The translations under genes were made by a program, and so were the position numbers. A stretch of 64,000 bases of DNA, from NCBI GenBank assembly GCA_964016885.1, contig OZ024740.1:85374001-85438000 (forward strand). The letters run 5' to 3'. This document shows, piece after piece, positions 60,151 through 62,969 of the stretch (positions are counted from its first letter, which is position 1; every line of letters begins with the position of its first letter). The notes under the pieces were generated by a model. It was not told where the DNA came from, ran no database searches, and saw only the letters and a program-made list of their open reading frames with translations. The DNA is from Eledone cirrhosa. Taxonomy: Eukaryota.

Positions 60151-61027
60151 TTAACAGTGCCGATTGTACAATGAAAGAATATGAACCATTTTCGATTTAG
60201 CTGATAGTCCCACATTCTTTTGATTCGACCAACTGTGGCTTTATTCAATATAAAATACAGACCAATCCCCCTTGGTCATCCAGTCATATTTGTATCTGCC
60301 GTCACTGTTAAATATTAACCCACCCCATGTGGTCGGAATTGACTATTTCTAGGAACATGTCAGATATAGAGGTATTTTGTATTTTCCTATATATATATAT
60401 ATATATATATATATATATATATATATATATATATATATGTGTGTGTGTGTGTGTGTGTGTGTGTGTCTATATATATCAAATGAAGCAACGGAGTTAAAGA
60501 CTCGCGTTTATCTCTGTAATTTAATGAGCTCAAGGGAACATTTTTTCCGGGCTCCTAAAAAATACAATATAGAGAGGAGAATACATAAGAGAATGTGTTT
60601 TCAATTACAGGGGGTATAAGGCCACTAGAGTGAAAATCATAAAAACTACGAAAGGTATGGGAAATACATTATAATTAAAAAGATAAATCACACTCTCTCA
60701 TGTGTTATCTTCTCTCTCTCTCTCTCTCTCTCTCTCTCTCTCTCTCTCTCTCTCTCTCTCTCTCTCTCTCTCTCTCTCTATATATATATATATATATATA
60801 TATATATATATATAAATAAATATAAGTATGTACACGTACATACATATATGTATACAGACGTACAGTAGTATGTATATATATATACATACATGCACACATA
60901 TATATATGTACGTATGGATTCACCGAACATTTATTATAATGCTCGGGGTGTTTGTAAACAAACATCCCGTATTAAGCCGTAGTGTCCAGCAACCATCGTG
61001 GCTCGTTTGTTCAACACTGACAAAGGA

Positions 61028-61070
61028 ACGCTGTACTAGTTTCAAGCTTATTAGCTATCATCAGCAACGT
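61028..61070 (-). ncRNA. Type-I hammerhead ribozyme
   Basis: ACGTTG-CTGATGA-TAGCTAATAAGCTT-GAAA-CTAG-TA-CAGCGT. Confidence 0.85.
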
Positions 61071-61451
61071 ATACCTTCCTGCCAGATTGTTGAACGTATA
61101 TACTTACCTTATGCATATTAACGGCTGAGTAGCCCAATTTGCATATCGAGTGGGTTAATCGGCCGGGTGCACCGAAAACGATAAACGGAAAAAATGAAAC
61201 GAAATTTCATTTCCCACTCTTAGTACGGCTGTTACTTAAATATAAGTTCGTACACGTACATACATATATGTATACAGACGTACAGTAGTATGTATATATA
61301 TATACATATATGCACACATATATATATATATGTACGTATGGATTCACCGAACATTTATTATAATGCTCGGGGTGTTTGTAAACAAACATCCCGTATTAAG
61401 CCGTAGTGTCCAGCAACCATCGTTGCTCGTTTGTTCAACACTGACAGAGGA

Positions 61452-61494
61452 ATGCTGTACTAGTTTCAAGCTTATTAGCTATCATCAGCAACGT
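61452..61494 (-). ncRNA. Type-I hammerhead ribozyme
   Basis: Same motif 424 bp further along; one stem I change. Confidence 0.8.
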
Positions 61495-61938
61495 ATACCT
61501 TCCTGCCAGATTGCTGAACGTATATACTTACCTTATGCATATTAACGGCTGAGTAGCCCAATTTGCATATCGAGTGGGTTAAACGAGCAACGATGGTTGC
61601 TGGACACTACGGCTTAATACGGGATGTTTGCTTACAAACACCCCGAGCATTATAATAAATGTTCGGTGAATCAATACGTACATATATATATGTGTGCATG
61701 TATGTATATATATATACATACTACTGTACGTCTGCATACATATATGTATGTACGTGTACATACTCATATTTAAGTAACAGCCGTACTAAGAGTGGGAAAT
61801 GAAATTTCGTTTCATTTCTTCCGTTTATCGTTTTCGGTGCACCCGGCCGATTAACCCACTCGATATGCAAATTGGGCTACTCAGCCGTTAATATGCATAA
61901 GGTAAGTATATACGTTCAACAATCTGGCATGAAGGTAT

Positions 61939-61981
61939 ACGTTGCTGATGATAGCTAATAAGCTTGAAACTAGTACAGCGT
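61939..61981 (+). ncRNA. Type-I hammerhead ribozyme
   Basis: ACGTTG-CTGATGA-TAGCTAATAAGCTT-GAAA-CTAG-TA-CAGCGT. Confidence 0.85.
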
Positions 61982-62969
61982 TCCTTTGTCAGTGTTGAAC
62001 AAACGAGCAACGATGGTTTCTGGACACTACGGCTTAATACGGGATGTTTGTTTACAAACACCCCGAGCATTATAATAAATGTTCGGTGAATCAATACGTA
62101 CATATATATATGTGTGCATGTATATATATATACATACTACTGTACGTCTGTATACATATATGTATGTACGTGTACATACTTATATTTAAGTAACAGCTGT
62201 TCTAAGAGTGGGAAATGAAATTTCGTTTCATTTTTTCCGTTTATATATATATATATATATATATATATATATATATATATATATATATATATATATATAT
62301 ATATTATATTATATTATATCATATTATATTATATTATATTATATCATATTATACCAATAAGCCAGAATATAAAATTTTAAATATCAAACTATAACTGAAG
62401 TAGGGCACATTCAGCCATTATGTATTTACCCTATTTCCAGCTGTCTCTCATAAAAACGAAACATTCATATTAAAATCAGATTTGATATTTGTATTCATTT
62501 TTATATCTCAGATGCGCATTGCATATATATATGCAATGTATATATATATATATATATATATATATATATATATATTCCTTATATTAAACTGCAACTAATG
62601 TTGACACTCTTTAACTAAAGTCTTCTATGTGAGTTTTGCGGTCTTGATTTGCTTAAATAATGAATATATATATATATATATATATATATATATATATATA
62701 TATATATATATATATATATATATATATATATATATATATCAACTAGAATATATATATGCATGTATATATATGTGTGTGTGTGTTTGTCTGTCTTATATGT
62801 TAGTTAACATCCAGAAACCATCTGGTTATGTAGACTTGGCAACAGTCCCGAAAATGTCTTGGAGCATTTTCCAAAAATATACCTCAATAGAGATAATTTC
62901 TTCATATGTTTTATCGCATTTTACATATACTTTCTCGAACACTGGTTGTCAAATCTATAACAGAAGATC

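Follow-up and report, generated by a model that had tools for sequence, protein, structure and literature searches.

Metazoan non-LTR retrozymes, as far as the accessible literature describes them, are non-coding tandem repeats with units a few hundred bp long, low GC content and one type I hammerhead ribozyme per unit; they range from monomers to long arrays, reach thousands of copies and co-occur with Penelope-like elements (PLEs), and the family described here resembles them in all of these respects. Retrozyme circles are on record from coral, mussel and axolotl in the available text of Cervera and de la Pena (2020, PMC7229834), and retrozymes are treated as non-autonomous PLE derivatives in the available part of a preprint (Li, Clavereau and Pollet, 2026, 10.64898/2026.07.22.740005). 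In the same partial texts, mobilisation of retrozymes by PLEs is argued from co-occurrence and from pLTR similarity (PMC7229834; 10.64898/2026.07.22.740005). For PLEs, Craig et al. described partial tandems together with a 5'-truncated copy in inverted orientation, a tail of 30-40 bp that is often confined to one end and a (TA)n bias (PMC8557442, accessible sections), and Arkhipova et al. described the same structures in rotifers and suggested self-priming (PMC3846280, accessible sections). A PLE protein was found to cut and extend both strands in vitro, preferring AT-rich DNA; its cDNA starts at two sites bracketing the tail, and hammerhead cleavage is not required (Frangieh et al., 2024, PMC11167929, in the part available). 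The view expressed in the available publications is that the origin of the tandem and inverted PLE structures is unsettled. Both questions, mobilisation and structure, could conveniently be approached in vitro with a genome that harbours a short non-coding unit in thousands of copies, some of them in young subfamilies, alongside candidate enzymes that are still intact.

In this study, we analysed a 64,000-nt stretch of the Eledone cirrhosa genome (contig OZ024740.1; hereafter the window), which contains two copies of such an element, locus 1 and locus 2. Locus 2 shows tandem units of 416-433 nt, 37.6% GC and two consecutive left-arm hammerheads (one with a stem-I mismatch), and it belongs to a non-coding, dispersed, high-copy family; non-LTR retrozymes are defined by units of about 150-450 bp, hammerheads in successive units and a GC content below 45-50%. 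It likewise carries the inverted 5'-truncated copy with a one-sided tail in a microsatellite, AT-rich target that marks PLE insertions. As described in the accessible sources, insertions of endonuclease-bearing PLEs, especially of the Hydra clade, have the same partial tandem, inverted 5'-truncated copy and tail at one end, the same (TA)n targets and a hammerhead within the repeat. Unlike these elements, locus 2 has no ORF, its entire insert consists of the repeat unit, and its tail of 56-60 nt exceeds the 30-40 bp given in the published text. Poseidon from the green anole, in the available account of its in vitro behaviour, uses two adjacent start sites that define the tail, cuts and extends both strands of an AT-rich target and copies an uncleaved RNA, as we propose for locus 2; it differs in being autonomous and of another clade, and the pairing of sites with ends was not counted per insertion in that text (PMC11167929).

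The element type is thus already known: the locus-2 family is likely a non-LTR retrozyme, that is, a non-autonomous PLE. Unlike known retrozymes, it gave no match to a sister pLTR in the ORF-bearing loci and 5' flanks searched. Insertions that join their arms head-to-head and have fixed, paired ends on both sides occur in this family and are not mentioned in the accessible text of either retrozyme source (PMC7229834; 10.64898/2026.07.22.740005). A count of two-end pairing in retrozymes was not found in the literature searched, from which most subscription papers fell outside. In twin priming of L1, two primed cDNAs are joined 5'-to-5', which inverts the 5' part; an L1 copy ends in poly(A), and its internal priming site varies. 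The locus-2 family, unlike L1, has fixed positions at both outer ends and no poly(A).

Layout of locus 2 and its hammerhead ribozymes

Locus 2 (60817-62244) is a 1.4-kb insert made of slightly more than four copies of a single unit. With unit position 1 placed at window position 61777, the left arm runs on the minus strand from unit position 412 to 1 and then from 420 to 72. The plus-strand right arm covers 225 to 420, then a full unit and finally 1 to 52. The outer ends of the family lie at two fixed sense 3' positions, A at ~412 and B at ~52 of the next unit, 56-60 nt apart. At locus 2, A is on the left and B, at 62244, on the right, with an A arm of 766 nt and a B arm of 661 nt; locus 1 has the reverse arrangement. 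The features are as follows.

606..1832: locus 1, end B on the left and end A on the right; other subfamily, ~91% identical
60712..60816: left-flank (CT)n(AT)n microsatellite, likely belonging to the target site
60817..61232, minus strand: outer unit of the left arm, bounded outwards at 60817 by fixed 3' end A (unit ~412)
61028..61070, minus strand: type I hammerhead with CTGATGA core at 61064-61058 and a palindromic stem III of two pairs; cleavage predicted after 61034
61229..61585, minus strand: inner unit of the left arm, 5'-truncated at unit ~72
61452..61494, minus strand: type I hammerhead copy; CTGATGA core 61482-61488, mismatch in stem I
61581..61585: head-to-head (5'-to-5') junction; exact overlap AA at 61581-61582, imperfect overlap of 4/5
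61581..61780, plus strand: partial unit of the right arm, 5'-truncated at unit ~225
61777..62192, plus strand: full unit of the right arm, 416 nt here and ~424 typically; 37.6% GC, strong self-pairing (z -6.2)
61939..61981, plus strand: type I hammerhead; CTGATGA core 61945-61951, predicted cleavage after 61975
62189..62244, plus strand: "tail" from end A to end B, ~56-60 nt; hairpin 62210-62238
62245..62340: right-flank (TA)n then (TATAT)n microsatellite, likely belonging to the target site

An earlier note on this DNA had described two minus-strand hammerheads 424 nt apart, a flip at ~61581 and a plus-strand hammerhead, and the cores and the junction were found there. No stop-to-stop ORF of at least 150 aa overlaps locus 2, and the ORF with reverse transcriptase and GIY-YIG endonuclease that defines an autonomous PLE is absent from it. 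A target duplication is unreadable at this locus, which has microsatellite on both sides.

A descriptor search returned complete type I hammerheads for two of the three copies (61064 on the minus and 61945 on the plus strand) and recovered a stem I of 6 bp, a stem II of 4 bp and a two-pair palindromic stem III. The CUGANGA core, GAAA, a UH cleavage site and three helices in type I topology are present, and the minus-strand cores are spaced 424 nt. The bare CTGATGA 7-mer occurs 18 times in the window (14.0 expected) and is not enriched. Rfam gave zero matches in the whole window at the gathering threshold; all three copies matched Hammerhead_HH9 below threshold, with 17.7-22.5 bits for a cut-off of 52 (E 0.012, 0.031 and 0.43). 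Sub-threshold miRNA matches from Rfam were produced by a (TA)/(CA) hairpin and were discarded. Because the 7-mer is unenriched, the assignment is based on structure and covariation. Among 10 distinct natural sequences from the locus-2 family, an older subfamily and a sister family, 91.5% of cells are paired and 5 of 13 pairs show double changes (11 cells) across lineages. Slid versions were only 20-43% paired, and none of 500 shuffles matched the covariation score, a control that leaves relatedness uncontrolled. Short palindromic helices III and dimeric action are known for hammerheads (PMC4209133, accessible text). With its two-pair palindromic stem III, the ribozyme of the locus-2 unit should, by prediction, cleave efficiently only in dimeric form.

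Paired ends across the genome and the insertion event

The 3.0-Gb genome is rich in microsatellites and contains 10,573 copies of the 31-nt ribozyme core without mismatch, compared with 0 for the reversed control. We mapped 91 loci, of which 66, counting the two in the window, were chosen by likeness (39 to locus 2 and 27 to locus 1), whereas the other 25, the core-only loci, were taken in genome order by exact core match; overlapping fetches of one site, and L097, whose flanks match those of L096, were excluded before counting. Satellite-like arrays of up to ~38 kb with diverged mosaic units were also seen (L235, G000:C1:96998500-97038200; L237, C1:51772500-51785000), as was a third young subfamily (L094:1290-4380) that is ~74% identical to the locus-2 unit and has 99% copies elsewhere.

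Flips are present in 48 of the 91 loci, and all 48 are head-to-head. Where a flipped locus has two canonical ends (n=35), these are A+B in 32 cases, A+A in 3 and B+B in none (p 2e-7 against 50%); the remaining 13 flipped loci have one non-canonical end. Within the 25 core-only loci, A+B was found five times and A+A once. Canonical ends are adjoined by (TA)n in 103 of 119 cases versus 10 of 43 for plain 5' ends. Sister family C, represented in the window at 30480-30930, is 63% identical to the locus-2 unit over 255 nt; in 30 mostly hand-picked, multi-unit loci of this family, 26 of 26 flips are head-to-head and 21 of 22 loci are A+B. These counts of A/B pairing (32/35 and 21/22) are the useful element of this study.

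Only 3 of 139 5' ends lie within 11 positions of the predicted cleavage site (~3.6 expected), and 16 5'-end entries at unit position 1 are unit-boundary artefacts. This lack of an accumulation at the cleavage site makes linear monomers released by cleavage improbable templates. The hammerhead is probably dispensable for the insertion step.

Taken with the layout described above, locus 2 is very probably one insertion of a non-coding ~424-nt non-LTR retrozyme, likely copied into (TA)n by PLE enzymes (reverse transcriptase together with GIY-YIG endonuclease). In such an event, the PLE enzyme would nick both target strands. The template would be a multimeric RNA that had escaped cleavage, or else a circle, derived from a single donor lineage, and two cDNAs would be started on it, one from A and one from B. 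Both would then continue into the preceding unit and halt early, and the two truncated cDNAs would be joined over a short microhomology. Locus 1 would record the same kind of event with another subfamily that landed in the opposite orientation.

How the inverted arm and the second locus came about could also be explained without two priming events or without transposition. An inverted arm might form with no second priming if the nascent cDNA folds back or switches template, or through a later rearrangement, and the short overlaps at many junctions, the few palindromic ones and the self-priming put forward for PLE inversions (PMC3846280, accessible part) agree with such a route. However, fold-back on the B arm is ruled out in 18 of 32 A+B loci, locus 2 among them, where the length of the A arm exceeds what copying of the B arm could yield; the B arm always extends ~60 nt past A, and in those 18 loci neither arm copies the other. 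Rearrangement would not yield 48 of 48 head-to-head flips with fixed outer ends, and fold-back is disfavoured as a general route by the arm lengths. We consider this whole class of explanation improbable. That the two loci arose by local (segmental) duplication, or that a satellite spread by DNA-level recombination, is hardly tenable. Two copies do lie within 60 kb and long satellite-like arrays of the family occur elsewhere, but the flanks of loci 1 and 2 share just microsatellites and short dispersed repeats, which refutes this origin for the pair. Moreover, the two loci fall into different subfamilies with closer relatives on other contigs, their breakpoints differ, and (TA)n surrounds their fixed termini.

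Loci 1 and 2 are therefore independent insertions, as their flanks indicate. The flank comparison proposed in the earlier note thus came out against a segmental duplication, and its claim of a mobile family is borne out by the non-homologous flanks together with the 10,573 cores. It had also reported that the left end of locus 2 matches the right end of locus 1 and vice versa. The match holds, but the ends are reverse-complementary, so that no swap took place; "swapped termini" as a signal of circular permutation was dropped in favour of one asymmetric element in two orientations.

Variants and the template of each insertion

Units within a locus share CTGATGA or CTGACGA together with small indels, as the earlier note had observed. 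The further claim that these variants are locus-specific did not hold: the core T occurs in 30 of 39 locus-2-like loci, in none of 27 locus-1-like loci and in three of the first 100 genome-wide matches. CTGATGA was dropped as a locus marker; CTGATGA or CTGACGA plus indels mark subfamilies. The two groups differ by 5.9%, and the locus-1 unit has 98-99% matches at many other places.

Units of the locus-2 group differ on average by 1.8% if they belong to one arm, by 2.6% if they belong to different arms and by 3.1% if they come from different loci; the corresponding means for the locus-1 group are 3.5%, 3.4% and 3.7%. A tree of 149 units is star-like: good support was obtained for only 18 of its 141 inner branches, in a bootstrap that had not settled. 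The three long units of locus 2 form a clade (99/83), and the two units of locus 1 do not. Only one rare-allele substitution is shared by the three long units of locus 2, and it is present in 4 of 39 loci. The expected clustering of units by locus was thus mostly not observed.

Rare alleles are common to opposite arms in 18 of 285 comparisons in the locus-2 group versus 182 of 28,414 between loci, and in 20 of 122 versus 102 of 14,231 in the locus-1 group. Cross-arm sharing of rare variants is thereby ~10-20 times background, and both arms of a locus likely come from one donor lineage. Later gene conversion could be an alternative or an added source of this sharing. Loci 1 and 2 each also have variants restricted to one arm.

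It might be supposed that each locus arose by rolling-circle reverse transcription of one monomeric circular RNA with its own variants, carried out by PLE enzymes. In loci of at most 5 segments, with CpG sites omitted, 11 private variants (in 6 loci) are present on both arms, and lineage haplotypes are common to both arms. The arms cross the cleavage site in 123 of 139 cases, a figure inflated by the locus-finding method, one 17-unit array differs by only 0.11%, and the circles from coral, mussel and axolotl (PMC7229834, in its available text) provide a precedent. In the same set of loci, however, 33 of the shared derived sites covered by at least three segments occur in only some units, compared with 22 in all units, and subfamilies are mixed within some loci (L122 and L105). 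A C>A change at unit position 317 of locus 2 is found in both right-arm segments and in neither left-arm one, at a site that mutates recurrently. Long arrays show variant patterns of period 2 and period 7, one of them with mutation-free middle units, which points to multimers or later local duplication. We therefore regard the single monomeric circle as a rather doubtful source. Of the earlier proposal that one variant template was read repeatedly, a single donor lineage is likely and a multimer fits these data, and the monomeric circle is the less likely form (33 partial versus 22 full sites).

Later local duplication is indicated by the period-2 and period-7 patterns and by array L236, whose middle units have no private changes while its terminal and opposite-arm units have them. 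For this reason, the long arrays were dropped as proof of rolling-circle copying. In the left arm of the A+B insertion in this record (L236:1015-5766), two unit variants take turns five times, a pattern suggesting later dimer-wise expansion or a dimeric template.

Beyond the preferred reading of two cDNAs started at A and B on RNA from one donor lineage, it is tempting to speculate that each flip is made in one concerted step, with one target end primed at A and the other at B by a dimeric Hydra-type PLE enzyme on a single circular retrozyme RNA. We put this forward tentatively, as something we would sooner bet against. If true, the families analysed here, including sister family C, would be genomic proof of PLE-driven retrozyme mobilisation, and the origin of inverted, one-tailed PLE insertions would be explained. 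Sister family C is the better material for deciding between circle and multimer: its unit measures 469 nt, many copies are 99-100% identical, arrays reach 15-16 units, and the family is very young.

Hydra-type PLEs and other repeats in the window

The same genome contains Hydra-type protein-coding elements with a terminal repeat, a one-sided tail, (TA)n flanks and a layout as in locus 2. In the window, an inverted pair at ~47270-50035 has hammerheads at both ends, a one-sided tail and a reverse-transcriptase fragment (~47950-48740) inside. Relatives of this pair elsewhere have the same terminal repeat, a tail of ~69 nt and ORFs of 682-750 aa (mostly 714), and end A is on one side and end B on the other in 2 of 12 loci. 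The sequences at 47270-50035 and 19765-20660 belong to a second Hydra-type PLE family, whose terminal repeats they show head-to-head, with a hammerhead at either end and a one-sided tail of ~65-69 nt.

Another copy, at 30340-33976 on the minus strand, is a 5'-truncated Hydra-type PLE with the C-terminal part of the reverse transcriptase and a GIY-YIG-like end. It has a 1.2-kb terminal repeat and a ~140-nt tail and belongs to a young, abundant family with ORFs of up to 830 aa; no canonical hammerhead was seen in its repeat. The family C copy at 30480-30930 sits inside the terminal repeat of this neighbouring PLE. Searches against Pfam and PDB sequences did not recognise the two Hydra-type ORFs. 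Because Pfam found no family, their identity is based on motifs: the Hydra-clade motifs RWK/RWR, DKT, YRDD and CxCX5C are present in the ~714-aa ORF and in the 830-aa relative of the 32363-33976 fragment.

The autonomous partner of the locus-2 family is likely a PLE, as judged from insertion anatomy only, because no autonomous element with the unit sequence was found among 50 GIY-YIG loci, 40 loci from one Hydra-type family, 12 from a second and 42 5' flanks, a sample of 102 ORF-bearing loci out of more than 10,000 candidates. Four copies near GIY-YIG ORFs (L055, L071, L072 and L290) were rejected as partners, as the unit does not adjoin the repeat that belongs to the ORF; in L071 and L072 it was inserted separately, into (TA)n. 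An apparent unit-ORF junction (L153/L154, G000:C1:18487900-18490700) proved instead to be a copy inserted into a PLE ORF. This copy lies outside microsatellite and has a 9-bp target duplication. It is now present on both arms of the inverted structure of its host PLE, which may have carried it along.

The window contains further repeats. A perfect 256-nt inverted pair at 10672-11188 lies in (TA)n, has a one-sided extension and matches in 20 of 295 records, and probably represents a further PLE family's terminal repeat. On the plus strand, 34759-46896 holds two or more LINE-like copies, with motifs of an APE endonuclease, a reverse transcriptase and an upstream ORF recognised by eye. A Helitron-like helicase fragment, also read by eye, is found at 52882-54648 on the minus strand, and the translation of a 137-nt coding-like tandem repeat at 26531-27551 resembles this fragment.
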